From: Escherichia phage teqhal | DNA length: 64,000 nt | Direction: 5' to 3' (one strand) | Sequence record: MN895435.1 | Shown here: piece by piece, positions 2,498 through 37,569 of the stretch | How positions within the stretch are numbered: the stretch's first letter is position 1 | Layout of the letters: each line of letters opens with the position of its first letter | Program-made: the position numbers and the translations under genes | The notes under the pieces: model-generated | Told to the model about the DNA's origin: nothing | What the model saw: the letters and a program-made list of their open reading frames with translations, nothing else | Database searches by the model: none

Positions 2498-2869
2498 ATG
2501 TTTAAAATCGGTAAGAAATATTGCATTCGTGAAGGTGAAGAACAGAAATATCTACTTTCTGCTAGTAATAGGAATAGTTCTATTAATGCTGTAATATCTA
2601 CAAGCGAATTTATCGTTGAAGATATGAAAGGTAATAATGTCACAATGATTAGTACAGCATCTGGAAATGATGGAAAAATTCTTCACAGTTTTCAGAGTAA
2701 TGTTCTAATTTATGATGAAGAATTTGACCTATTCGAAGAAGTTACAGAAGATTTTGATTTTGAATGCACTATCACTATGAAATCTGGCGATCCTCTTTCT
2801 TTTACAGTTAAAGATGAAAGAAGCCGCTTGAGAGTTATTAGTCTTCTTCAAGCCATTAAATTTAAGTGA
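2498..2869 (+). CDS. hypothetical protein, 123 aa
   Basis: ORF with RBS, tightly packed with neighbours. Confidence 0.5.
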   Translation: MFKIGKKYCIREGEEQKYLLSASNRNSSINAVISTSEFIVEDMKGNNVTMISTASGNDGKILHSFQSNVLIYDEEFDLFEEVTEDFDFECTITMKSGDPLSFTVKDERSRLRVISLLQAIKFK

Positions 2870-2874
2870 AAATT

Positions 2875-3135
2875 ATGAAATATATTAATCGTTCTATCGC
2901 AGCATTAGTATTAGCAGTGTCTTTAGTAGGATGTACTGATGCTGATAATGCAACTAAAGTTTTGTCTTCAAGTGGTTTTACTAATATTGAAATCACTGGA
3001 TATAACTGGTTCGGTTGCTCTGAAAATGATTTCCAACATACTGGATTTCGTGCTATTGGACCTACCGGGCAGAAAGTAGAAGGAACAGTATGTTCTGGGC
3101 TGTTCTTTAAGGATTCAACTATTCGTTTTAAATAA
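2875..3135 (+). CDS. putative lipoprotein, 86 aa
   Basis: Signal peptide followed by lipobox LVGC (MKYINRSIAALVLAVSLVGCTD); followed by a hairpin. Confidence 0.5.
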   Translation: MKYINRSIAALVLAVSLVGCTDADNATKVLSSSGFTNIEITGYNWFGCSENDFQHTGFRAIGPTGQKVEGTVCSGLFFKDSTIRFK

Positions 3136-3136
3136 A

Positions 3137-3153
3137 AGGCCTTCGGGCCTTTA
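3137..3153 (+). terminator. UUCG-loop hairpin after the lipoprotein ORF (weak terminator or RNA stability element)
   Basis: aggcc-ttcg-ggcct stem-loop followed by TT. Confidence 0.35.
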
Positions 3154-3204
3154 GCTTTATGATTACCGGAGTATAATATTCCCGAAACCAAACGAGGATA
3201 AGTG

Positions 3205-5022
3205 ATGATTAAGAATGAAATTAAAATTCTGAGCGATATTGAACATATCAAAAAGCGTAGTGGCATGTACATTGGCTCTTCTGCTAATGAAATGCATGAG
3301 CGCTTTCTGTTTGGTAAATGGGAAAGTGTTCAGTATGTACCTGGTCTTGTTAAGCTTATTGATGAAATTATCGATAACTCAGTCGATGAAGGTATTCGTA
3401 CTAAGTTTAAATTCGCGAATAAAATTAATGTTACCATTAAAAATAATCAGGTAACAGTTGAAGATAACGGTCGCGGTATTCCACAAGCGATGGTTAAAAC
3501 ACCTACCGGTGAAGAAATTCCTGGTCCAGTTGCTGCTTGGACTATTCCAAAAGCGGGTGGTAACTTCGGTGATGATAAAGAACGCGTCACTGGCGGTATG
3601 AATGGTGTTGGTTCTAGTTTAACTAACATTTTTTCTGTGATGTTTGTCGGAGAAACTGGCGACGGTCAAAATAATATTGTAGTTCGTTGTTCAAACGGCA
3701 TGGAAAATAAATCATGGGAAGATATTCCTGGAAAATGGAAAGGAACCCGTGTTACTTTCATTCCTGATTTTATGTCATTTGAAACTAATGAGCTGTCCCA
3801 AGTTTATCTTGACATTACACTAGATCGTCTCCAGACACTTGCTGTTGTTTATCCTGATATTCAATTTACCTTTAATGGTAAAAAGGTTCAGGGCAATTTT
3901 AAGAAATATGCACGCCAATATGATGAGCATGCTATTGTTCAAGAACAAGAAAATTGTTCTATTGCGGTTGGTCGTTCACCGGATGGTTTTCGTCAATTAA
4001 CTTATGTGAATAACATCCACACTAAGAATGGTGGCCATCACATTGACTGTGTTATGGATGATATTTGTGAAGACCTTATTCCACAAATCAAACGTAAGTT
4101 CAAAATTGATGTAACTAAAGCACGTGTCAAAGAATGTTTGACTATCGTTATGTTTGTTCGTGATATGAAAAACATGCGATTTGATTCTCAAACTAAAGAG
4201 CGTTTGACTTCTCCATTTGGCGAAATTCGTAGTCATATTCAGCTTGATGCTAAAAAGATTTCACGCGCTATTTTAAACAATGAAGCGATTTTGATGCCAA
4301 TTATTGAAGCTGCGTTGGCTCGTAAATTGGCGGCAGAAAAAGCAGCAGAAACTAAAGCAGCTAAAAAGGCTTCTAAAGCTAAGGTTCATAAACATATCAA
4401 AGCGAATCTTTGTGGTAAAGATGCTGATACTACTCTTTTCTTGACTGAGGGTGATTCGGCTATCGGATATCTTATTGATGTTCGTGATAAAGAACTTCAT
4501 GGTGGTTATCCATTGCGTGGTAAAGTTCTCAACAGTTGGGGTATGTCATATGCTGATATGCTTAAAAACAAAGAACTGTTTGATATTTGCGCAATCACTG
4601 GATTAGTTCTCGGTGAAAAAGCTGAAAACTTGAATTATCATAATATTGCTATTATGACTGATGCTGACCATGATGGTCTAGGAAGCATTTATCCTTCTCT
4701 GCTCGGGTTTTTTAGTAATTGGCCAGAATTGTTTGAGCAAGGACGAATTCGCTTTGTCAAAACTCCTGTAATCATCGCTCAGGTCGGTAAAAAACAAGAA
4801 TGGTTTTATACAGTCGCTGAATATGAGAGTGCTAAAGATGCTCTACCTAAACATAGCATCCGTTATATTAAGGGACTTGGCTCTTTGGAAAAATCTGAAT
4901 ATCGTGAGATGATTCAAAATCCGGTATATGATGTTGTTAAACTTCCTGAGAACTGGAAAGAGCTTTTTGAAATGCTCATGGGAGATAATGCTGACCTTCG
5001 TAAAGAATGGATGAGCCAGTAG
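3205..5022 (+). CDS. 39: DNA topoisomerase II large (ATPase) subunit, single-chain 39+60 type
   Basis: 605 aa from ATG at 3205 (track start 3202 is GTG); N-terminus MIKNEIKILSDIEHIKKRSGMYIGS is GyrB/gp39-like; continuous ORF with no bypass element. Confidence 0.9.
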   Translation: MIKNEIKILSDIEHIKKRSGMYIGSSANEMHERFLFGKWESVQYVPGLVKLIDEIIDNSVDEGIRTKFKFANKINVTIKNNQVTVEDNGRGIPQAMVKTPTGEEIPGPVAAWTIPKAGGNFGDDKERVTGGMNGVGSSLTNIFSVMFVGETGDGQNNIVVRCSNGMENKSWEDIPGKWKGTRVTFIPDFMSFETNELSQVYLDITLDRLQTLAVVYPDIQFTFNGKKVQGNFKKYARQYDEHAIVQEQENCSIAVGRSPDGFRQLTYVNNIHTKNGGHHIDCVMDDICEDLIPQIKRKFKIDVTKARVKECLTIVMFVRDMKNMRFDSQTKERLTSPFGEIRSHIQLDAKKISRAILNNEAILMPIIEAALARKLAAEKAAETKAAKKASKAKVHKHIKANLCGKDADTTLFLTEGDSAIGYLIDVRDKELHGGYPLRGKVLNSWGMSYADMLKNKELFDICAITGLVLGEKAENLNYHNIAIMTDADHDGLGSIYPSLLGFFSNWPELFEQGRIRFVKTPVIIAQVGKKQEWFYTVAEYESAKDALPKHSIRYIKGLGSLEKSEYREMIQNPVYDVVKLPENWKELFEMLMGDNADLRKEWMSQ

Positions 5023-5076
5023 TTTACTTTACCACAAGGATGTGGTATAATTAATTGGGCAAATGAGGATATTGGA

Positions 5077-5280
5077 ATGAAATCATATAAAGTAAATTTA
5101 GAACTTTTTGATAAAGCAGTTCATCGAGAATATAGAATCATTCAACGCTTTTTCGATATGGGAGAAGCCGAAGAATTTAAAAACCGCTTTAAGGATATTA
5201 GAGATAAAATTCAATCCGACACCGCAACTAAAGATGAACTACTAGAAGTTGCTGAAGTTATTAAACGTAATATGAATTAA
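5077..5280 (+). CDS. hypothetical protein, 67 aa (rIIA.1 position)
   Basis: ORF between gene 39 and rIIA. Confidence 0.5.
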
Positions 5281-5290
5281 TGAGGAAATT

Positions 5291-7468
5291 ATGATTATCA
5301 CCACTGAAAAAGAAACAATTCTTGGTAATGGTTCTAAATCAAAAGCATTTAGCATCGCAGCAAATCCTAAAGTATTTAAAATTCTATCATCTGATTTGTA
5401 TACAAACAAGATTCGCGCAGTAGTCCGTGAATTGATTACTAACATGATTGATGCTCATGCACTTAATGGAAATCCTGAAAAATTTATCATTCAAGTTCCA
5501 GGACGATTAGATCCACGATTTGTTTGTCGAGATTTTGGTCCGGGTATGAGTGATTTTGATATTCAGGGTGATGATAATTCTCCTGGTTTGTATAATTCAT
5601 ACTTCAGTTCATCTAAGGCTGAATCTAACGATTTCATTGGCGGATTTGGGTTAGGTTCTAAATCTCCGTTTAGTTATACTGATACATTTAGTATTACTTC
5701 TTATCATAAAGGTGAAATTCGTGGTTATGTAGCTTACATGGATGGCGATGGTCCACAAATTAAACCTACATTCGTAAAAGAAATGGGTCCAGATGATAAA
5801 ACTGGTATTGAAATCGTAGTTCCAGTTGAAGAAAAAGACTTTAGAAACTTTGCTTATGAAGTTTCTTATATCATGCGACCATTCAAAGATTTGGCTATCA
5901 TTAATGGTCTTGACCGCGAAATTGATTATTTTCCGGATTTTGATGATTATTATGGCGTAAATCCAGAAAGATACTGGCCTGATCGCGGTGGATTATATGC
6001 TATCTATGGCGGTATTGTTTATCCTATCGATGGTGTTATTAGAGACCGTAACTGGCTAAGCATTCGCAATGAAGTGAATTACATTAAGTTTCCAATGGGT
6101 TCACTTGATATTGCTCCATCTCGCGAGGCTCTTTCACTGGATGATCGCACTCGTAAAAATATTATTGAACGAGTTAAAGAACTCAGTGAGAAAGCATTTA
6201 ATGAAGATGTAAAACGATTTAAAGAATCTACATCTCCTCGTCATACATATCGTGAATTGATGAAGATGGGGTATTCTGCTCGAGATTATATGATTAGTAA
6301 TTCAGTCAAATTCACGACTAAAAATCTGTCATATAAGAAAATGCAGAGCATGTTTGAACCTGACAGTAAGTTATGTAATGCAGGCGTGGTGTATGAAGTA
6401 AATCTTGACCCTCGACTGAAGCGTATTAAGCAAAGTCATGAAACTTCAGCCGTTGCATCAAGTTATCGTCTGTTTGGTATTAATACGACAAAAATTAATA
6501 TTGTTATTGATAATATTAAAAATCGTGTTAATATTGTCCGTGGATTAGCACGTGCATTAGATGATAGTGAATTTAATAACACCTTAAATATTCATCACAA
6601 TGAGCGTCTTCTGTTTATTAATCCGGAAGTAGAATCACAGATTGATTTGCTTCCTGACATTATGGCGATGTTTGAAAGTGATGAAGTTAACATTCATTAT
6701 TTGTCAGAAATTGAAGCTTTAGTTAAAAGCTATATTCCAAAGGTAGTTAAAAGTAAAGCTCCTCGTCCTAAAGCTGCTACAGCATTTAAATTTGAAATTA
6801 AAGATGGGCGATGGGAAAAAGAGGAACTATTTACACTTACGTCAGAAGCAGATGAAATTACTGGTTATGTAGCGTATATGCATCGTTCTGATATTTTCTC
6901 TATGGATGGTACTACATCGCTTTGTCATCCATCTATGAATATTTTGATTCGTATGGCTAATCTTATTGGCATTAATGAATTTTATGTTATTCGTCCGCTT
7001 TTGCAGAAAAAGGTAAAAGAGCTTGGTCAGTGCCAATGTATTTTTGAAGCTTTACGTGATTTATATGTAGATGCTTTTGATGATGTAGATTATGATAAGT
7101 ATGTAGGTTATTCAAGTTCAGCTCAACGATATATTGATAAAATTATCAAGCATCCTGAACTAGATTTTATGATGAAGTACTTCAGTACAGATGAAGTTTC
7201 TGAAGAATATACACGACTTGGTAATATGGTTAGTTCATTACGCGGTGTATATTTCAACGGTGGAAAAGATACCATCGGTCATGATATCTGGACAGTAACT
7301 AATCTCTTTGATGAATTATCACGTAATGCTTCAAAAAATAGTGATAAAATGGTTGCTGAGTTTACCAAGAAATTCCGTATTGTTTCCGACTTCATCGGTT
7401 ATCGCAACTCTTTAAGTGATGATGAAGTTTCCCAAATCGCTAAAACTATGAAGGCCCTTGCGGCCTAA
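5291..7468 (+). CDS. rIIA: rIIA membrane-associated protein (protects against Rex-type exclusion)
   Basis: 725 aa, the T4 rIIA length; N-terminal ATPase-like region; followed directly by a 312 aa ORF. Confidence 0.85.
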
Positions 7469-7479
7469 TAAGGAAAATT

Positions 7480-8418
7480 ATGTACAATATTAAATGCCTG
7501 ACCAAAAACGAACAATCTGAAATTGTTAAATTGTATTCAAGTGGTAATTACACCCAACAGGAATTGGCTGATTGGCAAGGTGTATCGGTTGACACAATCC
7601 GTCGTGTTTTGAAAAATGCTGAAGAAGCTAAACGCTCTAAAGTTACTATTAGCGGTGATATTACAGTTAAAGTTAATAGCGATGCAGTTATTGCTCCAGT
7701 TGCTAAATCTGACATTATTTGGAATGCATCTAAAAAATTCATTTCAATTACTGTTGACGGTGTAACTTATAACGCAACTCCTAATACTCATTCAAACTTC
7801 CAGGAAATTCTTAATCTGCTTGTAGCGGATAAGCTGGAAGAAGCTGCACAAAAAATTAATGTTCGCCGTGCTGTTGAAAAATATATTTCCGGCGATGTTC
7901 GAATTGAAGGTGGAAGCTTGTTCTATCAAAATATCGAATTGCGGTCTGGTTTGGTTGATCGTATTCTTGACTCGATGGAAAAAGGCGAAAACTTTGAATT
8001 TTATTTTCCGTTCTTGGAAAATCTGCTGGAAAACCCAAGCCAAAAAGCGGTATCTCGACTCTTTGATTTCTTGGTAGCAAACGATATTGAAATTACAGAA
8101 GATGGTTACTTCTATGCTTGGAAAGTAGTTCGCAGCAATTACTTTGACTGTCACTCAAACACCTTTGATAACAGTCCGGGTAAAGTAGTTAAAATGCCGC
8201 GTACTCGTGTGAATGACGATGATACACAAACTTGTTCTCGTGGTCTGCATGTGTGTTCTAAATCTTATATTCGTCACTTCGGTGGTTCAACCAGCCGAGT
8301 TGTAAAAGTTAAAGTACATCCACGCGATGTAGTATCAATTCCGATTGATTACAACGATGCTAAAATGCGTACCTGCCAATACGAAGTAGTTGAAGACGTT
8401 ACTGAACAATTTAAATAA
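7480..8418 (+). CDS. rIIB: rIIB protein
   Basis: 312 aa, the T4 rIIB length; immediately downstream of rIIA. Confidence 0.85.
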   Translation: MYNIKCLTKNEQSEIVKLYSSGNYTQQELADWQGVSVDTIRRVLKNAEEAKRSKVTISGDITVKVNSDAVIAPVAKSDIIWNASKKFISITVDGVTYNATPNTHSNFQEILNLLVADKLEEAAQKINVRRAVEKYISGDVRIEGGSLFYQNIELRSGLVDRILDSMEKGENFEFYFPFLENLLENPSQKAVSRLFDFLVANDIEITEDGYFYAWKVVRSNYFDCHSNTFDNSPGKVVKMPRTRVNDDDTQTCSRGLHVCSKSYIRHFGGSTSRVVKVKVHPRDVVSIPIDYNDAKMRTCQYEVVEDVTEQFK

Positions 8419-11423: not shown

Positions 11424-12752
11424 ATGCAACTGAATAATCGCGATTTAAAAAGTATCATTGATAATGAAGCATTGGCTTATGCTATGTACACGGTTGAAAA
11501 TCGTGCTATTCCAAATATGATTGATGGATTTAAGCCAGTTCAACGATTTGTTATTGCTCGAGCTCTTGATTTGGCACGAGGAAATAAAGATAAGTTTCAC
11601 AAACTTGCTTCTATTGCAGGTGGTGTAGCGGACCTTGGATATCACCATGGTGAAAACTCTGCACAAGATGCAGGGGCTTTGATGGCTAATACTTGGAATA
11701 ATAACTTTCCTTTGTTAGATGGTCAAGGAAACTTCGGTTCTCGTACTGTCCAAAAGGCAGCAGCTAGTCGTTATATTTTTGCTCGTGTAAGTAAAAATTT
11801 CTATAACGTATATAAAGATACTGAATATGCTCCAGTACATCAAGATAAAGAACACATTCCGCCTGCTTTCTATTTGCCTATTATTCCTACTGTTCTTCTT
11901 AATGGTGTTTCCGGTATTGCAACTGGTTATGCAACTTACATTCTTCCTCATAGTGTTTCTTCTGTCAAGAAAGCTGTACTGCAAGCTCTTCAAGGAAAGA
12001 AAGTAACTAAACCGAAGGTAGAATTCCCAGAATTTCGTGGTGAAGTCGTTGAGATTGATGGGCAATATGAAATTCGTGGAACATACAAGTTTACTTCACG
12101 AACTCAAATGCATATCACTGAGATTCCGTATAAGTATGATCGTGAAACTTATGTGAGTAAAATCTTAGACCCACTTGAAGATAAAGGCTTCATTACGTGG
12201 GATGATGCTTGTGGTGAGCATGGCTTTGGCTTTAAAGTTAAATTCCGTAAAGAATATTCTTTGAGCGATAATGAAGAAGAACGCCATGCAAAAATTATGA
12301 AAGACTTCGGGTTGATTGAGCGTCGTTCCCAAAATATTACCGTTATTAATGAGAAAGGAAAGCTACAAGTTTACGATAACGTAGTTGATTTAATCAAAGA
12401 CTTCGTTGAAGTTCGTAAAACTTATGTCCAAAAACGAATTGATAACAAAATCAAAGAAACTGAATCAGCATTTCGTTTAGCCTTTGCCAAGGCGCATTTC
12501 ATTAAGAAAGTAATTTCAGGTGAAATTGTTGTACAGGGTAAAACTCGTAAAGAACTGACCGAAGAACTTTCTAAAATTGAGATGTATTCTTCTTATGTTG
12601 ATAAACTAGTTGGAATGAATATTTTTCATATGACTTCTGATGAAGCAAAGAAACTTGCTGAAGAAGCTAAAGCTAAAAAAGAAGAAAACGAATATTGGAA
12701 AACTACTGATGTAGTTACAGAATACACTAAAGATTTAGAGGAAATCAAATGA
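11424..12752 (+). CDS. 52: DNA topoisomerase II medium (GyrA-like) subunit
   Basis: 442 aa, the T4 gp52 length; N-terminal region AYAMYTVENRAIPNMIDGFKPVQRFVIARAL is the type II topoisomerase A-subunit motif. Confidence 0.9.
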   Translation: MQLNNRDLKSIIDNEALAYAMYTVENRAIPNMIDGFKPVQRFVIARALDLARGNKDKFHKLASIAGGVADLGYHHGENSAQDAGALMANTWNNNFPLLDGQGNFGSRTVQKAAASRYIFARVSKNFYNVYKDTEYAPVHQDKEHIPPAFYLPIIPTVLLNGVSGIATGYATYILPHSVSSVKKAVLQALQGKKVTKPKVEFPEFRGEVVEIDGQYEIRGTYKFTSRTQMHITEIPYKYDRETYVSKILDPLEDKGFITWDDACGEHGFGFKVKFRKEYSLSDNEEERHAKIMKDFGLIERRSQNITVINEKGKLQVYDNVVDLIKDFVEVRKTYVQKRIDNKIKETESAFRLAFAKAHFIKKVISGEIVVQGKTRKELTEELSKIEMYSSYVDKLVGMNIFHMTSDEAKKLAEEAKAKKEENEYWKTTDVVTEYTKDLEEIK

Positions 12753-16442: not shown

Positions 16443-17228
16443 TTATACTCTTGAACCATATATTGTACCAACCTTAGTCCAAGTTGGAGCATTACCAGTA
16501 ACAGCTTTACCGGCCGCGCCGCCGTTATATTCTGATCCTTGCCCACGAATATTACATTTACCACCTGCGGCACCAGCATCACCGCCATTCCCGCCATTAT
16601 AGATACCATTGACAGACCCTTTACCAGGTGCAGAAATAGTACCAGCAGTAGCGCCCTGTTCCATATTAGCAGACCCGCCAGCAGCACCAAATGGACGACC
16701 GCCGCCACCGCCAAAAGTCAATTTCATTTGTGAAAAAGGAGAATAATATCCGCCTCCACCGCCGCCACCGCCTCCTGCGATAACACCATTGTTGTTAATA
16801 CGCAATCTAGTTCCAATTCCATTATTTATTGCAGTTCCTCCTGCTCCACCGGCAGAGTTATTTCCGCCATTCCCGCCACGGCCCCAAACATGCACTCCTG
16901 AATTGATATTAAGTGTCACGTATGCATTAGTTAATGAGCTAGGAAAATCTAAGCATGGAACACCAGTAGATTGAGAAACAATATTTCCTGTAATAGTAAT
17001 AACAACAGGAGTACTGCCTTGGGCTTTTATCCAGTTTATTAATGTATCTTTATTATAAGAATTACTAGCACCAATGCTATAATATACTTCTTTAGATTGT
17101 CCGGCCATTGAGCTCATCCAACCGGGAACTGAAACACGGACTGCTCTCATTGCAGCATCCATCCAACGTTGTCCAGTTTCATTCACGGCAGATTCACCAA
17201 TCCAGCCAGGAACACCTACAATTGCCAT
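16443..17228 (-). CDS. 38: gp38 receptor-recognising tail-fibre adhesin, T2 type
   Basis: 261 aa; C-terminal half has several glycine-rich runs (GGGGGGGGGYY, FGGGGGRPFGAAGG, NGGNGGDAGAAGG) separated by variable segments; downstream of gene 37. Confidence 0.8.
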   Translation of the reverse strand: MAIVGVPGWIGESAVNETGQRWMDAAMRAVRVSVPGWMSSMAGQSKEVYYSIGASNSYNKDTLINWIKAQGSTPVVITITGNIVSQSTGVPCLDFPSSLTNAYVTLNINSGVHVWGRGGNGGNNSAGGAGGTAINNGIGTRLRINNNGVIAGGGGGGGGGYYSPFSQMKLTFGGGGGRPFGAAGGSANMEQGATAGTISAPGKGSVNGIYNGGNGGDAGAAGGKCNIRGQGSEYNGGAAGKAVTGNAPTWTKVGTIYGSRV

Positions 17229-17258: not shown

Positions 17259-20200
17259 TTACATAAGTTTAGATTCAAGTTCTTTTACACGAGAAGAAAG
17301 CGTTTTCACAGCTTCAACCAGAAGAGCAATCTGGGCTTGAGAAGAAACAGTGAGTATTTTATTACCCTTGCTGTCTTCTGTTTCACGGACGGCTTCTGGT
17401 AAAACGTCTTGTAACGTTTGAGCTACAATACCCGCTTCAGTTTCAATTGCCTCTCCACCGATGTATTCAGCTTTATCATAAATGACACCATTGAGTTTTT
17501 CAACTTTATCAAGTGCATTTTCGATAGGTTTGAAATTAGATTTTAAGCGAATATCAGAACGAATATAAACGTTTGGAGCATTTATATTTTTATATGAGTA
17601 CAAATCACCGTTTTGGAAACGGAATACTTGTACGCTGTTCGCATATATGTCTAATAATCCATCGCCATTTTGCTTAATACCAGTATCGCTATCACCAAAT
17701 GCTATACTATTTCCACCAAGTGCGTTATTGATATTAATACCAAATGAATTCATTTGGTTAACACCAGCTACAGTAGCATTATTTACTACAAAGCGGTTAG
17801 CTCCACCTGGAGCTTTTTCAAAGTAAGCAATATAGTTAGTTTCATCGGCAATTTCAATACGGTTACCACGAGAAGCATCGCCAGCATGAAATATTCTCAT
17901 ATTTCTTGGGTTAGCACCAGACTTATCAAAGTTAATAGAACCATTATCTTTGACATTTATGCTATTATAGAATAAAGCAGCACTGCGAACAGCTATGCCG
18001 TTATTCATTAATACTTCACCGGTTGTTAAGTTAATTGCGAAAGGACGCTTACTATTCCAATCACCGTTAACAGTTGCTTCGCCATCGGTGGCATTTTTAT
18101 CTGTAAACAGAATATAAAAACTACTGCCATCATTTCGTAGCATTGTAGCAACAGAACCAGTTTTATCGCTGTTGCTTCTAATACGAATACCAGTTTGGTT
18201 ATTAATAGCTATTTCAGAATCGGCTTCATAACGCTTAACTTTGCCGCGATCAACCAAGTTATTAAGAACATTAGCAACTTGCCCATCAACTGCTGTATCT
18301 GGAAGAGCATCCACAGGTGATTGGGTAGATGAGTTAATACCAATAACGCTAACAGTAGCATTTTCGGTACATGACCATTCACAAGTTAATTGATTGCAAT
18401 ATGTTCCGGCATAAACATAAATGTCATATGTATCTCCAGAGACGTTATTAACTGCAATATTTTTAAATGCAGCTGCAATTGTTCTTGTGTATAATACAGC
18501 ATTTAAGTCAGCAGGTCTTTCATTACTAGTACGTAAAACAATTTCAGCAATATTGCATTGTGTGAATAATCCACTATTAAATCCAGAACCACCGGCTATT
18601 TTAAAGAAGACCGTAGAAGTGGATTGTGGCATTGTTACTGTTGCAAACTTATACCATCCAGCAGTTGCTCCATAAGTAATAAATCCAGAATTAACTTTAC
18701 GATTTAGCGTGGTGTTTAAGTTAGCAAAGTTTCCTGAACCGCTAGTAATATTACCATCAGTTCCTAGTTGGGCATTTCCGACTTTAAGAGGTTTACTGAT
18801 TGACACGAAATTATCGCTTATAACAAGACCGTGTCCATAAGATTGACTATAAAGCGATAAATCACTTCCAGCGCCACCAAGACCAACATACCACGATCTA
18901 GTTCCAGCTTTAGAACCCTGCAAATAATTAGCAGAAGAAGATGAAGGAGAATCTAGAGTAAGCGCTGCATTACGTTCATTAATAGTTACTGGACATATCA
19001 TTTTAATAGTTTTAAGACTATTACTTACTTGTAATAATCCTGTACCAGATCCAGAATCTCCTAAATGAACATCATGCGACATTTTAACTGTGCCGGTGTT
19101 CAGTTCTATTATCAATGGTCTAAGATTACTTATACCGCCAGATTCTCCAGCATCTTTAGGAGTCGGGATAATATAAAGATTTCTTTCTGAGCGACGGAAA
19201 ATAGCACCATATTCGGCATTCCAAATTCTTAATGCATCAGCAGTTCCGCCGATTTTAACTTGTCCAGTAATAGAAGAACCACCTTGGACAAACAAACCAT
19301 TAGACATGGTAACATTACCGACTAAAGTGCTTAATCCATTAACTTTAAAACTTCCGTCAGTAATAATACTTCCTCTAGCATTAACAGCTCCAGCAAACTG
19401 GGTTACAACAGGACCAGTAGTTTCTGAGCCGCTTGGGGCTACACGCTGGGAATAAAAATAATAACCTTGTCCGTCAGCTACTTCAAAAACTGTTTCACGA
19501 TTACGATCGCCAGATGCGTTAAATGAATTACCCCACGCTTTAACAGTTACATAGCTTTTATTCTGACCAGCACGAGTACCGCCTTCCCACAAAATTTGCT
19601 TAGTGCCATCAATTGTAGTAGTTGGAGCGAATGTTAGCCCAGCAGTAGAATTATTAGCTGCTAAATATATGCCGTTATATATTGAAAGCTGCTTAACAGA
19701 TGTAATACCGCCATCAGCATAAAACATTACATTATTAGAGCCAGTTACCAATTTCAAAATACCTGGGTTAACTTCCATGCCTTCTTGAGTATTAATATTA
19801 GTTTTTCCTTTACCACGGAAATAGTGGTTCATTTTACCGCCAGAGTTATATCCAATGTGGGTTTGACCATCTCCAGCAGAGTTTTCATCAGCCTGTGTTT
19901 GAACCGATAAAAAAGCAGCGTTCGTTCCAGGCATAATCCATGTTCCGCCTTGGTCTTCTGAACGTCCAAATAATGCTTTACGAGTACTACGGAAACTGTC
20001 AGGAGTAATAGACGCGATAGAAAGACCATTAGCAACTAAATCATATACACCAGATCTTTTATATGATACACCAGTTGCGGCATCTCCAATGACTATATAG
20101 CATTCACCCATTGCTCCAGTGGAGCCGTAATTATTAATGTTTTCATCTGTTGTAATTGTACCAATTGCGAGTGAGCGTCGCAACACTAAAGACCCATCAT

Positions 20201-21041
20201 TGCGAAGGCCCATTTGTTTATTAACGGCTGTATTACCGGTCCACCAAGACAGTTCATCACTTTTTCCGGTTTGTGCAGAAGCTAATTCATGATAAATCGT
20301 ACCACCAGATTTTGCACGGAATTTACGAAGGTAATTAATTCCGTTTGTTTCACCAGTTCCAGGATAAACATATTGAACTAATGACTGCGAATCGTATTGT
20401 CCAAACGCTTTCGTATCAAATGAAATATTTTTAGTTACAACAGATGGACCAATCAAAGAACCTGTTCTTGTTTCAATATTACTCTGAGCGACTAAATACC
20501 CACCAGATACTAATAAATTACCAGAATCAACTTGAAAATTACCTGAGCGCGCAAATGTCCAATATTTAGATTGACCAGTTTCATCAATATAATGAATCTT
20601 CAACGAACCTTCAGAAACTAAAGTACCTAATGAAAAAGTTCCATCTTTAAAGCGCTGTTTAATTATAGGATTATATTCAGATGTGGAAGTAGCTGAGCTT
20701 AAATCTACAAAAATTGGAGCCTTTGCAGTGTGTTGACCGGACCAAGCCCCACTTCCAGTAGTACGATAATTAAACTCAATATATCCACCACTTGCTATAA
20801 TCTGCGGGCCAATTAAATTAAATTTTCCAGTCTGTGTATAATCACCAGTTTGAGTGATATTACCACTGATATTACCGCCAGCGGTAATGCTTAAGTCAAT
20901 GATATTTCCTGAATCGTCTTTAGTAAAAATTGTTCTATCTTTTAAGTTTATAGCCAATTCACCTTCGGCTAATACTGAAGCAGCAGGACGTTGACCTGCA
21001 GTTTTGCTTCTTTTAAATTGTATTTGTTTTAAAGTAGCCAT
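17259..21041 (-). CDS. 37: long tail fibre distal subunit gp37 with C-terminal chaperone-like domain
   Basis: 1260 aa; C-terminal about 120 aa (SDIRLKSNFKPIENALDKVEKLNGVIYD...) resembles the self-cleaving intramolecular chaperone domain; synteny 34-35-36-37-38-t. Confidence 0.9.
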   Translation of the reverse strand: MATLKQIQFKRSKTAGQRPAASVLAEGELAINLKDRTIFTKDDSGNIIDLSITAGGNISGNITQTGDYTQTGKFNLIGPQIIASGGYIEFNYRTTGSGAWSGQHTAKAPIFVDLSSATSTSEYNPIIKQRFKDGTFSLGTLVSEGSLKIHYIDETGQSKYWTFARSGNFQVDSGNLLVSGGYLVAQSNIETRTGSLIGPSVVTKNISFDTKAFGQYDSQSLVQYVYPGTGETNGINYLRKFRAKSGGTIYHELASAQTGKSDELSWWTGNTAVNKQMGLRNDGSLVLRRSLAIGTITTDENINNYGSTGAMGECYIVIGDAATGVSYKRSGVYDLVANGLSIASITPDSFRSTRKALFGRSEDQGGTWIMPGTNAAFLSVQTQADENSAGDGQTHIGYNSGGKMNHYFRGKGKTNINTQEGMEVNPGILKLVTGSNNVMFYADGGITSVKQLSIYNGIYLAANNSTAGLTFAPTTTIDGTKQILWEGGTRAGQNKSYVTVKAWGNSFNASGDRNRETVFEVADGQGYYFYSQRVAPSGSETTGPVVTQFAGAVNARGSIITDGSFKVNGLSTLVGNVTMSNGLFVQGGSSITGQVKIGGTADALRIWNAEYGAIFRRSERNLYIIPTPKDAGESGGISNLRPLIIELNTGTVKMSHDVHLGDSGSGTGLLQVSNSLKTIKMICPVTINERNAALTLDSPSSSSANYLQGSKAGTRSWYVGLGGAGSDLSLYSQSYGHGLVISDNFVSISKPLKVGNAQLGTDGNITSGSGNFANLNTTLNRKVNSGFITYGATAGWYKFATVTMPQSTSTVFFKIAGGSGFNSGLFTQCNIAEIVLRTSNERPADLNAVLYTRTIAAAFKNIAVNNVSGDTYDIYVYAGTYCNQLTCEWSCTENATVSVIGINSSTQSPVDALPDTAVDGQVANVLNNLVDRGKVKRYEADSEIAINNQTGIRIRSNSDKTGSVATMLRNDGSSFYILFTDKNATDGEATVNGDWNSKRPFAINLTTGEVLMNNGIAVRSAALFYNSINVKDNGSINFDKSGANPRNMRIFHAGDASRGNRIEIADETNYIAYFEKAPGGANRFVVNNATVAGVNQMNSFGININNALGGNSIAFGDSDTGIKQNGDGLLDIYANSVQVFRFQNGDLYSYKNINAPNVYIRSDIRLKSNFKPIENALDKVEKLNGVIYDKAEYIGGEAIETEAGIVAQTLQDVLPEAVRETEDSKGNKILTVSSQAQIALLVEAVKTLSSRVKELESKLM

Positions 21042-32656: not shown

Positions 32657-33517
32657 ATGAAACAATACCAAGATTTAATTAAAGACATTTTTGAAAATGG
32701 CTATGAAACCGATGACCGAACGGGCACAGGAACAATTGCTCTGTTCGGTACTAAATTGCGTTGGGATTTAACCAAAGGTTTTCCTGCAGTAACAACTAAG
32801 AAGCTCGCCTGGAATGCATGCATTGCTGAGCTAATATGGTTTTTATCAGGAAGCACAAATGTTAATGATTTACGATTAATTCAACACGATTCGTTAATCC
32901 AAGGCAAAACAGTTTGGGATGAAAATTACGAAAATCAGGCAAAAGATTTAGGATACCATAGCGGTGAACTTGGTCCAATTTATGGAAAACAGTGGCGTGA
33001 TTTTGGCGGTGTAGACCAAATTATAGAAGTTGTTGATCGTATTAAAAAACTGCCAAATGATAGGCGTCAAATTGTTTCTGCGTGGAATCCAGCTGAACTT
33101 AAATATATGGCATTACCTCCTTGTCATATGTTCTATCAGTTTAATGTGCGTAATGGCTATTTAGATTTGCAGTGGTATCAACGTTCGGTAGATGTTTTCC
33201 TCGGTCTTCCATTTAATATTGCATCATATGCTACGTTAGTTCATATTGTAGCTAAGATGTGTAATCTTATTCCGGGAGATTTGATATTTTCTGGTGGTAA
33301 TACTCATATCTATATGAATCACGTAGAACAATGTAAAGAAATTTTGCGTCGTGAACCTATGGATTTATGCGAATTACAATTAAAATTTCCAGATGAATTT
33401 GATGAATGGGACACAGAATCGCAGGTATTTTGGTTGAGTCAATTTGCAAAGCCTCATAATTTTGTTCTTAACAACTATGTATCTCATCTGCCAATTAAAG
33501 GAAAAATGGCGGTATAA
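32657..33517 (+). CDS. td: thymidylate synthase, uninterrupted
   Basis: 286 aa continuous ORF; thymidylate synthase active-site region MALPPCHMFYQFNV. Confidence 0.9.
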   Translation: MKQYQDLIKDIFENGYETDDRTGTGTIALFGTKLRWDLTKGFPAVTTKKLAWNACIAELIWFLSGSTNVNDLRLIQHDSLIQGKTVWDENYENQAKDLGYHSGELGPIYGKQWRDFGGVDQIIEVVDRIKKLPNDRRQIVSAWNPAELKYMALPPCHMFYQFNVRNGYLDLQWYQRSVDVFLGLPFNIASYATLVHIVAKMCNLIPGDLIFSGGNTHIYMNHVEQCKEILRREPMDLCELQLKFPDEFDEWDTESQVFWLSQFAKPHNFVLNNYVSHLPIKGKMAV

Positions 33518-33804: not shown

Positions 33805-34084
33805 ATACAAATCCGACTTTGATGTTAATATTCACCGCGGTACATTTTGGGGAAATTACGTCGGTAAAGATGCTGGCAGCCGGGAGGCTGCCATTGAATT
33901 ATTCAAAAAAGATTTTATACGTCGAATTAAATCCGGAGAAATAACTAAAGCACATTTAGAGCCTTTACGTGGAATGAGGCTAGGATGCACATGTAAACCA
34001 AAGCCGTGTCATGGTGATATAATAGCTCATATAGTTAACCGATTGTTTAAAGACGATTTTCAAGTTGAGGACTTATGCAATTAA
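33758..34084 (+). CDS. hypothetical protein, 108 aa
   Basis: ORF overlapping upstream gene by 47 nt; start uncertain. Confidence 0.4.
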
Positions 34085-36339
34085 TTAATGTTATCAAAAG
34101 TAGTGGTGTTTCTCAGAGCTTTGACCCACAAAAAATTATTAAAGTTTTATCTTGGGCAGCTGAAGGAACATCGGTAGATCCTTATGAATTATATGAAAAT
34201 ATTAAATCTTATCTCCGTGATGGAATGACAACTGATGATATTCAGACTATTGTCATTAAGGCCGCTGCGAATTCTATTTCGGTTGAAGAGCCTGATTATC
34301 AATATGTAGCTGCACGTTGTCTAATGTTCGCTCTTCGTAAGCATGTTTATGGGCAGTATGAACCACGTTCATTTATTGACCATATTTCTTACTGTGTAAA
34401 TGAAGGTAAATACGACCCTGAATTATTGTCAAAATATTCAGCAGAAGAAATTACATTTTTAGAATCAAAAATTAAGCACGAGCGGGATATGGAATTTACT
34501 TATTCCGGGGCGATGCAATTAAAAGAAAAATATCTAGTTAAAGATAAAACCACTGGTCAAATTTATGAAACTCCACAGTTTGCATTTATGACTATTGGAA
34601 TGGCATTGCATCAAGATGAACCTGTTGATAGATTAAAACACGTTATCCGTTTTTATGAAGCAGTATCTACTCGACAGATTTCATTGCCAACTCCTATTAT
34701 GGCTGGTTGCCGTACTCCGACTCGACAGTTTAGTTCATGTGTTGTTATTGAGGCAGGTGATTCATTAAAGTCTATCAATAAGGCTTCCGCTTCAATTGTT
34801 GAATATATCTCTAAACGCGCTGGAATTGGTATTAACGTTGGTATGATTCGTGCTGAAGGTTCTAAGATTGGCATGGGTGAAGTACGCCATACCGGTGTTA
34901 TTCCTTTTTGGAAACATTTTCAGACTGCTGTTAAATCATGCTCACAGGGTGGAATTCGTGGCGGCGCTGCTACTGCTTATTATCCTATTTGGCATTTGGA
35001 AGTTGAAAATCTTCTCGTTTTGAAAAATAACAAAGGTGTAGAAGAAAACCGCATTCGTCATATGGATTATGGTGTTCAACTGAATGATCTAATGATGGAA
35101 CGTTTTGGAAAGAACGATTACATTACTTTGTTCAGTCCACATGAAATGGGTGGAGAGCTTTATTATTCTTATTTTAAAGACCAAGACCGTTTCCGTGAAT
35201 TATACGAAGCAGCAGAAAAAGACCCTAATATTCGTAAAAAGCGCATTAAAGCCCGTGAACTATTTGAATTGCTCATGACTGAACGCTCAGGAACAGCAAG
35301 GATTTATGTGCAGTTCATTGATAATACGAATAACTATACTCCGTTTATTCGTGAAAAGGCACCTATTCGTCAGAGTAACTTGTGCTGTGAAATTGCTATT
35401 CCAACAAATGATGTGAATAGCCCTGATGCTGAAATTGGATTGTGCACGTTATCTGCATTTGTGTTGGATAACTTCGATTGGCAAGACCAAGATAAAATTA
35501 ATGAATTAGCAGAAGTTCAAGTTCGTGCTCTTGATAATCTTTTGGATTACCAAGGATATCCAGTTCCTGAAGCAGAAAAAGCTAAAAAGCGTCGAAACCT
35601 TGGTGTAGGTGTTACTAACTATGCAGCTTGGCTGGCAAGTAACTTTGCTTCTTATGAAGATGCTAACGATTTAACACATGAACTATTTGAGAGATTACAG
35701 TATGGACTCATTAAAGCATCCATTAAGCTCGCCAAAGAAAAAGGACCTTGTGAATATTATTCAGACACTCGTTGGTCTCGAGGCGAATTACCTATCGACT
35801 GGTACAATAAAAAGATTGACCAAATCGCAGCTCCAAAATACGTTTGTGACTGGTCGTCGCTGCGGGAAGACCTTAAGCTCTTTGGCATCCGTAATAGCAC
35901 ATTATCAGCACTTATGCCATGTGAGTCATCTTCCCAAGTTTCTAACAGTACAAACGGTATCGAGCCTCCACGTGGACCAGTCTCTGTTAAAGAATCAAAA
36001 GAGGGCTCCTTTAATCAAGTCGTGCCCAATATTGAGCATAACATAGACCTCTATGATTATACATGGAAATTAGCTAAGAAAGGTAATAAACCTTATCTTA
36101 CGCAGGTAGCTATTATGCTGAAATGGGTATGTCAATCAGCTTCAGCGAATACATATTATGACCCACAGATTTTTCCAAAAGGAAAGGTTCCAATGTCAAT
36201 AATGATTGATGACCTTTTGTATTTTTGGTATTTTGGCGGAAAAAATTTCTATTATCATAATACCCGTGATGGTTCTGGTACTGATGATTATGAAATAGAA
36301 ACTCCAAAAGCTGAAGATTGTTCATCCTGTAAATTATGA
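34075..36339 (+). CDS. nrdA: ribonucleoside-diphosphate reductase large subunit
   Basis: 754 aa, the T4 NrdA length; class I RNR large-subunit sequence. Confidence 0.9.
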   Translation: MQLINVIKSSGVSQSFDPQKIIKVLSWAAEGTSVDPYELYENIKSYLRDGMTTDDIQTIVIKAAANSISVEEPDYQYVAARCLMFALRKHVYGQYEPRSFIDHISYCVNEGKYDPELLSKYSAEEITFLESKIKHERDMEFTYSGAMQLKEKYLVKDKTTGQIYETPQFAFMTIGMALHQDEPVDRLKHVIRFYEAVSTRQISLPTPIMAGCRTPTRQFSSCVVIEAGDSLKSINKASASIVEYISKRAGIGINVGMIRAEGSKIGMGEVRHTGVIPFWKHFQTAVKSCSQGGIRGGAATAYYPIWHLEVENLLVLKNNKGVEENRIRHMDYGVQLNDLMMERFGKNDYITLFSPHEMGGELYYSYFKDQDRFRELYEAAEKDPNIRKKRIKARELFELLMTERSGTARIYVQFIDNTNNYTPFIREKAPIRQSNLCCEIAIPTNDVNSPDAEIGLCTLSAFVLDNFDWQDQDKINELAEVQVRALDNLLDYQGYPVPEAEKAKKRRNLGVGVTNYAAWLASNFASYEDANDLTHELFERLQYGLIKASIKLAKEKGPCEYYSDTRWSRGELPIDWYNKKIDQIAAPKYVCDWSSLREDLKLFGIRNSTLSALMPCESSSQVSNSTNGIEPPRGPVSVKESKEGSFNQVVPNIEHNIDLYDYTWKLAKKGNKPYLTQVAIMLKWVCQSASANTYYDPQIFPKGKVPMSIMIDDLLYFWYFGGKNFYYHNTRDGSGTDDYEIETPKAEDCSSCKL

Positions 36340-36390: not shown

Positions 36391-37569
36391 ATGAGCACAG
36401 TTTTTAATACAAATCCAGTTGATGTTTTAAAAGAACCTATGTTTTTTGGTTCAGGTCTTGGTATTGCGCGTTATGATATTCAACGCCATAAAGTTTTTGA
36501 AGATTTAACCGAAAAGCAATTATCATTTTTCTGGCGTCCTGAAGAAGTAAACTTAATGATGGATGCTGCACAGTTTAATAAGATTCCTCAGTATCAGCAA
36601 AATATTTTTACTAATAATCTGAAGTATCAATCACTTTTGGATAGCATTCAGGGTCGTGCGCCGTCTGCTGTACTTATGTCATTAATTTCAGACCCAAGCC
36701 TTGATACATGGGTTGCTACGTGGACTTTTAGTGAAACTATTCACTCTCGTTCATATACACATATCATGCGAAATCTTTATACTGATCCATCGAAGGTATT
36801 TGATGAGATTGTATTAGATGAAGCTATTATGAAACGTGCTGAATCCATTGGACGTTATTATGATGATGTTCTGACTAAAACTCGTTATTGGGAAAACGCT
36901 AAAGCTGATATCGAATACCAAAAAGAAATTAATGCAGACGAAGATGTTATTGAAGATGCTATTGAGCATGAGACATATTGGAAGCGTGAGCTAATGAAAT
37001 CTCTTTACCTCTGTTTGCATGTAATCAACGCATTGGAAGCTATTCGTTTTTATGTATCTTTCGCATGTACCTTTAACTTCCATAAGAACATGGAAATTAT
37101 GGAAGGCAATGCAAAGATTATGAAGTTCATTGCACGTGATGAGCAGCTTCATCTTAAAGGTACACAATATATTATTCGTCAACTTCAATCTGGTACTGAT
37201 GGCGATGAATGGGTTAAAATTGCTCAAGAGTGTGAACAAGAAGCAGTTGATATTTTCATGGAAGTTAACCGCCAAGAAAAAGATTGGGCAGTTCATTTAT
37301 TTAAAGATGGCGATGTTCCTGGATTAAATACAAATAGCATGTGGAGCTTTATTGATTACTTAACTGTATCTCGTATGAAACAGTGTGGTCTTCCATGCCC
37401 AATTACCGATGCTCCGGTTAAACATCCATATCCTTGGATTCGTGAATATCTTAATTCTGATAATGTTCAATCCGCGCCACAAGAAGTAGAACTGTCATCT
37501 TATCTTGTTGCACAGATTGATAATGATGTTGATGATAAAGTTATGATGAGTTTTAAAAAATACTTTTAA
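36391..37569 (+). CDS. nrdB: ribonucleoside-diphosphate reductase small subunit, uninterrupted
   Basis: 392 aa continuous ORF; R2-like di-iron ligand spacing. Confidence 0.9.
   Translation: MSTVFNTNPVDVLKEPMFFGSGLGIARYDIQRHKVFEDLTEKQLSFFWRPEEVNLMMDAAQFNKIPQYQQNIFTNNLKYQSLLDSIQGRAPSAVLMSLISDPSLDTWVATWTFSETIHSRSYTHIMRNLYTDPSKVFDEIVLDEAIMKRAESIGRYYDDVLTKTRYWENAKADIEYQKEINADEDVIEDAIEHETYWKRELMKSLYLCLHVINALEAIRFYVSFACTFNFHKNMEIMEGNAKIMKFIARDEQLHLKGTQYIIRQLQSGTDGDEWVKIAQECEQEAVDIFMEVNRQEKDWAVHLFKDGDVPGLNTNSMWSFIDYLTVSRMKQCGLPCPITDAPVKHPYPWIREYLNSDNVQSAPQEVELSSYLVAQIDNDVDDKVMMSFKKYF

Follow-up and report, generated by a model that had tools for sequence, protein, structure and literature searches.

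Whether the large subunit of the type II DNA topoisomerase is encoded as a single chain, or is divided between gene 39 and gene 60 with a translational bypass as in T4, is the question raised by the topoisomerase locus of Escherichia phage teqhal (sequence record MN895435.1), which was studied here in a window of 64,000 nt, the whole stretch of DNA that was analysed. Among the type IIA topoisomerases known so far, only that of T4 has three subunits, those of T2 and T6 having two, gp39 and gp52 (PMC11461880, Nat Commun 2024). The analysis leads to the answer, which we regard as almost certain, that the interval 3205–5022 is an uninterrupted, 'parental' gene 39 of the T2/T6 Tequatrovirus type, encoding the GyrB-like half of a type IIA topoisomerase in full, and that the cassette found in T4 was never acquired or was not kept. 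The window itself is typical of Tequatrovirus (T-even) genomes and runs opposite to the T4 reference numbering, its first 25 kb being 97.5% identical to phage FriedrichMiescher. The locus matches 535 phage records; Escherichia phage FriedrichZschokke is at the top with 99.1% identity over 2.2 kb, and AR1, RB3 and others come next at ~98%. The features discussed below are collected in Table 1.

In the six-frame ORF list the open frame extends from 3202 to 5022, and the product counted from ATG 3205 begins MIKNEIKILSDIEHIKKRSGMYIG. No in-frame stop and no ambiguous base occur within 3205–5022, and both the reading frame and the codon-level conservation are intact. The GTG at 3202, one codon before this ATG, is probably not the start of gene 39; the ATG is preferred because the T4, T2 and T6 proteins all start with MIKNEIK, which is also the N-terminus obtained here. 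The stop codon occupies 5020–5022, and a spacer of 54 nt then separates gene 39 from rIIA.1, which is followed by rIIA. The sequence-only reading had described one continuous ORF of 605 residues at 3205–5022 that leads straight into the rIIA.1/rIIA region, and this description holds in both respects.

Table 1. Features of the gene 39 locus and of related genes, in window coordinates.
Feature	Position	Strand	Evidence
Shine–Dalgarno GAGGA, 6 nt 5' of ATG 3205	3194..3198	+	Sequence reading
Gene 39, unsplit, topoisomerase II large subunit, 605 aa (GHKL ATPase + transducer + Toprim/Toprim-C)	3205..5022	+	ORF list, Pfam, PHROG 543, T2/T6 identity
ATPase region, aa 1–385	3205..4359	+	Motifs; match to T6 ATPase-domain crystal construct 9IMJ over aa 1–380
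Codon of Glu415, Toprim metal-binding glutamate (TEGDSA)	4447..4449	+	Motif position; E415/D486/D488 named for T6 in PMC11461880
64-nt segment encoding ENLNYHNIAIMTDADHDGLGS; intact MobA target region, in place of which T4 has the 1117-nt MobA/bypass cassette	4623..4686	+	blastn breakpoints; identical to T2
Toprim DxDxD motif GAT GCT GAC CAT GAT GGT (D486 A D488 H D490 G491), the bypass-homologous site	4660..4677	+	Codon table
Candidate promoter-like site TTTACT-17-TATAAT with TG, in the gene 39/rIIA.1 spacer	5023..5051	+	Consensus match only
rIIA.1, 67 aa	5077..5280	+	Pfam PF24210 T4_RIIA1, E 1.4e-33
rIIA, 725 aa	5291..7468	+	ORF list; rIIA annotation in matching relatives; collinear with T4 rIIA
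rIIB	7480–8418		ORF list/Pfam
Gene 52, topoisomerase II medium (GyrA-like) subunit, 442 aa, catalytic Arg116-Tyr117	11424..12752	+	Pfam DNA_topoisoIV E 1e-76; NCBIfam GyrA/ParC-type matches; RY position

Focusing on the relation to the divided T4 subunit, the product was aligned with the T4 proteins of NC_000866, namely gp39 of 516 residues and gp60 of 160 residues, the latter joined over the annotated 50-nt bypass. By blastp, residues 1–473 match residues 1–473 of T4 gp39 with 98.5% identity and residues 472–605 match residues 27–160 of gp60 with 95.5% identity, both without gaps, so that the single ORF spans both T4 proteins. The topoisomerase-derived parts of the two T4 proteins are thus collinear with the present protein at 95–99% identity, and the neighbours on either side, 39.1 upstream and rIIA.1/rIIA downstream, are shared as well. 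At the nucleotide level, blastn aligns window 2873–4622 with T4 5661–3911 (96.3%) and window 4687–5380 with T4 2793–2100 (98.4%), and the breakpoints accordingly fall at 4622/4623 and 4686/4687 in the window and at 3911 and 2793 in T4. Between them T4 carries an insert that holds a 43-residue tail of gp39, a mobA pseudogene, 60.1, an N-terminal extension of gp60, homR and the 50-nt gap. The gp39 tail, the mobA pseudogene and 60.1 are all absent from the present phage, as are the N-terminal extension of ~30 residues carried by T4 gp60 and homR itself, a 46-nt segment of the insert which is 76% identical to window 4631–4676. The division also affects the metal site of the Toprim domain: T4 is split after residue 473, between E415 and the DxD motif, and therefore E415 lies on gp39 and DxD on gp60, whereas the present phage has the whole triad on one chain.

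The junction itself shows how the two arrangements differ. The T4 sequence reads ...GAT GGA at the take-off site, continues with UAG CCUUCGGGCUAUC...AUUAUU GGA up to the landing codon and resumes with UUA GGU UCU AUU, the take-off GGA-UAG hairpin and the gap to the landing GGA both being lacking in the present phage. Here the corresponding sequence is GAT GGT CTA GGA AGC ATT, encoding Asp490 to Ile495 (Asp-Gly-Leu-Gly-Ser-Ile) without stop, hairpin or gap, and the GGT at 4675–4677 is the counterpart of the T4 take-off GGA. A regular-expression search for GGA followed by a stop, 40–50 nt and a second GGA gave no match in any frame of the gene 39 ORF, the T4 take-off stem-loop sequence gave none in the 64 kb with up to three mismatches allowed, and the RNA around the bypass-homologous site folds no better than its shuffles (z = 0.10). 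The T4-type combination of a take-off GGA, a stop within a stem-loop, a gap of ~50 nt and a landing GGA is therefore not found in the ORF, and neither mobA nor a mobA pseudogene lies between the two halves of the subunit. With gp60, its first 30 residues, gp60.1, MobA and the C-terminal tail of gp39 as queries, tblastn and blastn returned only the gene 39 ORF within the 64 kb; in the same 64 kb, T4 mobA, 60.1 and the entire 1117-nt insert have no significant match except for the 46-nt homR counterpart (76%). What is present at this site is the intact 64-nt segment into which MobA inserts, free of remnants of the C-terminal or N-terminal extensions. That there is neither a gene 60 split nor a bypass element, as had been read from the letters alone, is consequently borne out by GGT CTA GGA AGC at the junction and by the null results of the pattern and stem-loop searches.

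The comparison with T2 and T6 places the gene more precisely. T2 (AP018813, BBF63163.1) has a 605-residue ORF at the same position, and its gp39 is identical to the present protein at 604 of the 605 residues, the one difference being L70 in T2 where the present phage has F70. The two genes differ at 72 of 1818 nt (96.0% identity; ~4% synonymous nucleotide divergence), and the MobA target segment of T2 is identical to 4623–4686. T6 gp39, identical at 603 of the 605 residues, is the top match of the PDB search (8YLU_C, 8YO1, 8YOD, 9IMJ), and the runner-up is an artificial T4 gp39–gp60 fusion (8YO3), which aligns as two blocks. T2 and T6 further share with the present phage the length of 605 residues, the gene order 39.1, 39, rIIA.1, rIIA, the residues E415/D486/D488, the ATPase motifs and the gp52 partner.

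The product contains the domains expected for the complete GyrB-like half. The ATPase and transducer motifs are found at residues 54 (N-box, EIIDNSVDE), 87 (DNGRGIP), 130 (GGMNGVG) and 329 (the QTK loop, QTKERL). The GHKL ATP-binding fold is recognized by Pfam HATPase_c (E 2e-9, 38.3 bits against a cut-off of 26.4), and the transducer by DNA_gyraseB (PF00204, residues 250–384, 51.1 bits against a cut-off of 27) together with the QTK loop. TOPRIM_C scores 32.2 bits against a cut-off of 29. The Pfam Toprim model reaches 19.8 bits, slightly below its gathering cut-off of 23.1; E415 and D486/D488/D490 (DADHDG) are all on the one chain, and the region is covered by the full-length alignment to T6 gp39, the Toprim structure of which has been solved. 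The product also matches PHROG 543, 'DNA topoisomerase II large subunit', with an E-value of 2.4e-295. The NCBIfam GyrB/ParE equivalogs (TIGR01059, TIGR01055/8) were scored at 217–233 bits and their cut-offs of 723–900 were not reached, which is to be expected of a phage subfamily that has diverged. Judged from its sequence, the gene 39 product is a homologue of cellular GyrB/ParE and not an orthologue of either, its family being that of the phage topoisomerase II large subunits. The partner is likewise encoded in the window, as a GyrA-like gp52 with its catalytic tyrosine.

A minor difference was observed just before the QTK loop, at residues 326–328 (4180–4188), where the present phage, T2 and T6 have R-FDS-QTK and T4 gp39 has R-LIR-QTK. 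At the DNA level two indels that compensate each other, −1 and +1, account for the LIR of T4 (ATTTGATTCTC against ATTGATTCGTC). The variant is an oddity specific to T4, and the T4 construct in the PDB has it too.

With respect to the direction of change, the cellular enzymes are informative. Human TOP2A/B (E ~1e-59), yeast Top2 and Streptococcus pneumoniae ParE each give one uninterrupted alignment over residues ~6–605, running through the point at which T4 is split, and the one-chain arrangement is therefore general among type IIA enzymes. Cellular GyrB/ParE and the N-terminal half of eukaryotic topoisomerase II have the same domain order of GHKL ATPase, transducer and Toprim, whereas the identity of GyrB/ParE to the present gp39 is low (233 bits against a 740-bit equivalog cut-off) and the insertion of the Escherichia coli GyrB type is absent from it. 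In the literature, the unsplit gene is the 'parental' target that was invaded by a MobA/bypass mobile element (bioRxiv 10.1101/2022.08.31.505936; PMC11461880). Manning & Atkins describe that the MobA insertion deletes 64 nt of the parental gene, at nt ~1399–1419, that the 3' end of the element lies 9 nt past G491 in clade 1 (the T4 clade) and that the element-borne homR is 67–81% identical to the parental sequence (bioRxiv 10.1101/2022.08.31.505936); the same preprint places the MobA nick in the middle of homR, ~20 nt 5' of the point of bypass insertion. The breakpoints between the window and T4 agree with this published anatomy of the element, the homR comparison made here giving 76% over 46 nt. 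Taken together, the single-stretch alignments and the literature on the parental target support the view that the unsplit gene is the ancestral state and the T4 split the derived one.

The frequency of the two states was estimated with a junction-only query (window 4573–4736), which replaced a wider count of 495 'contiguous' records that possibly included T4-type ones, pieces up to 1.6 kb apart having been joined. With this query, 451 phage records are uninterrupted at 94–100% identity and 41 are partial and of the T4 type; the T4 insert itself is present in 43 of 50,697 records. About 92% of the close relatives thus share the uninterrupted state, which is the normal one, and the T4 split with its ribosome 'hop' is the exception. 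The sequence-only reading had called the locus T2-like, ancestral and a mark that sets the phage apart from T4. Its first point agrees with the identities of 604/605 to T2 gp39 and 603/605 to T6 gp39, and its second with the TOP2A/B, Top2 and ParE alignments and the published parental target. The third is true with respect to T4 itself; however, the uninterrupted state is that of the majority (451 records against ~41–43) and is therefore no marker that separates this phage from most Tequatrovirus genomes.

Several alternative explanations of the single ORF have to be weighed against a parental gene. The ORF might cover gp39 alone, with a separate gene 60 elsewhere, which we regard as having a negligible chance of being correct: its residues 472–605 run gap-free along gp60 27–160 at 95.5%, tblastn with gp60 finds only the gene 39 locus within the 64 kb, and T2 and T6, which differ by one or two residues, are documented two-subunit enzymes (PMC11461880). 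The gp60 alignment and the tblastn search rule this scenario out for the 64-kb window, and a further gene 60-like fragment outside it would be unnecessary because the gene 39 ORF covers all of the topoisomerase part of gp60. Similarly, it is hardly conceivable that an error of assembly or consensus has produced the continuous ORF and masks an insertion in the real phage population, since the same uninterrupted junction occurs in 451 independent phage records at 94–100% identity, no base is ambiguous, and reading frame and codon-level conservation are intact.

The remaining alternatives concern the history of the locus. The MobA/bypass cassette may once have been present and later have been lost by excision or recombination, so that a single ORF was restored; such 'hit and run' cases have been described for some Aeromonas phages, which belong to another clade (bioRxiv 10.1101/2022.08.31.505936). 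T-even phages recombine freely, the flanks of the present gene are as near to T4 (96.3% and 98.4% nt) as to T2 (96.0% nt), and homologous replacement of the cassette by a naive allele would leave no scar. The Aeromonas cases, however, keep insertions of the C-terminal (CTE) or N-terminal extension (NTE) (bioRxiv 10.1101/2022.08.31.505936), whereas no remnant of either is found in the ORF or in the window, the protein has exactly the parental length of 605 residues, and the 64-nt segment is identical to that of naive T2, its identity to the element-borne homR being only 76%. A scar of this kind was rejected on the absence of CTE/NTE remnants and the identity of the segment to T2, and we consider such a history highly improbable. 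It is also very unlikely, in our estimation, that the gene is a secondary 'healed' allele, from which the cassette was lost cleanly through recombination with a naive relative. Alternatively, the phage would simply be a naive MobA-sensitive recipient, to be converted to the T4 state in mixed infection; with either of these histories the known picture of the system would be unchanged.

The parental reading suggests the following working of the locus. Gene 39 supplies the GHKL ATPase, the transducer with its QTK loop and the Toprim domain with E415...D486xD488 on a single chain, and, by analogy with the T6 and T2 proteins, gp39 and gp52 should form a (gp39)2(gp52)2 heterotetramer, in which the ATP-driven passage of one duplex through a gp52-Tyr117-linked double-strand break in another would relax and decatenate phage DNA during replication. 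The T-even topoisomerase relaxes DNA and does not supercoil it. T6 gp39 and gp52 have been purified together as a heterotetramer, which was imaged by cryo-EM and found to relax DNA with ATP; its metal site is E415/D486/D488, and the T4 'Toprim insertion' of ~70 residues lies outside the domain and influences activity little (PMC11461880). The T4 arrangement of 39, mobA, 60.1 and 60 with the 50-nt bypass arose when a MobA homing-endonuclease cassette invaded this same site, and the present phage never acquired the cassette, or did not keep it, and has the 64-nt target in the form identical to T2. This target may be sensitive to MobA, to judge by what has been published on T6 and T2, whose proteins are almost identical to the present one. 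As the target is identical to that of T2, the phage is predicted to be a recipient of MobA-driven homing in co-infection.

The genetic account of the MobA/gene 39 system was reportedly given by Bonocora et al. in 2011. The unsplit gene 39 is thus already known genetically, comparatively and structurally (PMC11461880; bioRxiv 10.1101/2022.08.31.505936). For the present phage, the correct annotation is that of a full-length topoisomerase II large subunit (gp39, T2/T6 type) without a recoding event, and the phage is placed among the large Tequatrovirus majority without the MobA cassette.

The genes td (286 aa, 32657–33517) and nrdB (392 aa, 36391–37569) are uninterrupted, and nrdA (34075–36339) is separated from nrdB by 51 nt; over the 64 kb, Rfam gave no group I intron and no other family, and ARAGORN gave no tRNA. 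In T4, td presumably has an intron with I-TevI and nrdB one with I-TevIII, and mobE lies between nrdA and nrdB. The missing td and nrdB introns and the missing mobE would fit the missing mobA.

Some observations were made on the neighbouring genes. Upstream of gene 39, the 39.1 homologue (PHROG 902; 2866–3135, plus strand; T4 counterpart 5390–5680) is an intact ORF of 89 residues, or 86 from the ATG, with a lipoprotein-like signal peptide that ends in a lipobox (...AVSLVGC/TDAD). In the T4 reference LINS replaces LVGC and there is in addition a 1-nt insertion (GATTAATGC against GATAATGC); because this insertion shifts the signal-peptide part out of frame, the annotated T4 39.1 of 65 residues looks, from the sequence comparison, like an N-terminally truncated remnant. 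Between 39.1 and the 39.2 homologue (2319–2495, an FmdB-like zinc ribbon) lies an ORF of 123 residues (2498–2869, plus strand) that belongs to PHROG 622, for which no function is assigned there, and that has weak N-terminal similarity to a goF PHROG; in T4 no gene is annotated there, whereas T2 and FriedrichZschokke have one. In the FriedrichZschokke record (MZ501067, 5192–7369) rIIA is annotated as two CDS, a 'hypothetical' one of 312 nt and an 'rIIA' one of 1731 nt, which suggests a frameshift or interruption in that record, as against the intact 725-residue rIIA of the window.

Farther away, on the minus strand, gp38 (16443–17228) is an adhesin of 261 residues (Pfam GP38 and Gp38_N), and gp37 (17259–21041) has 1260 residues with a C-terminal 'chaperone of endosialidase' (Peptidase_S74) domain. 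A tail-fibre tip with a gp38 adhesin is what we take to be the type of T2 and T6, T4 presumably having a shorter, chaperone-type gp38 and a gp37 of 1026 residues.
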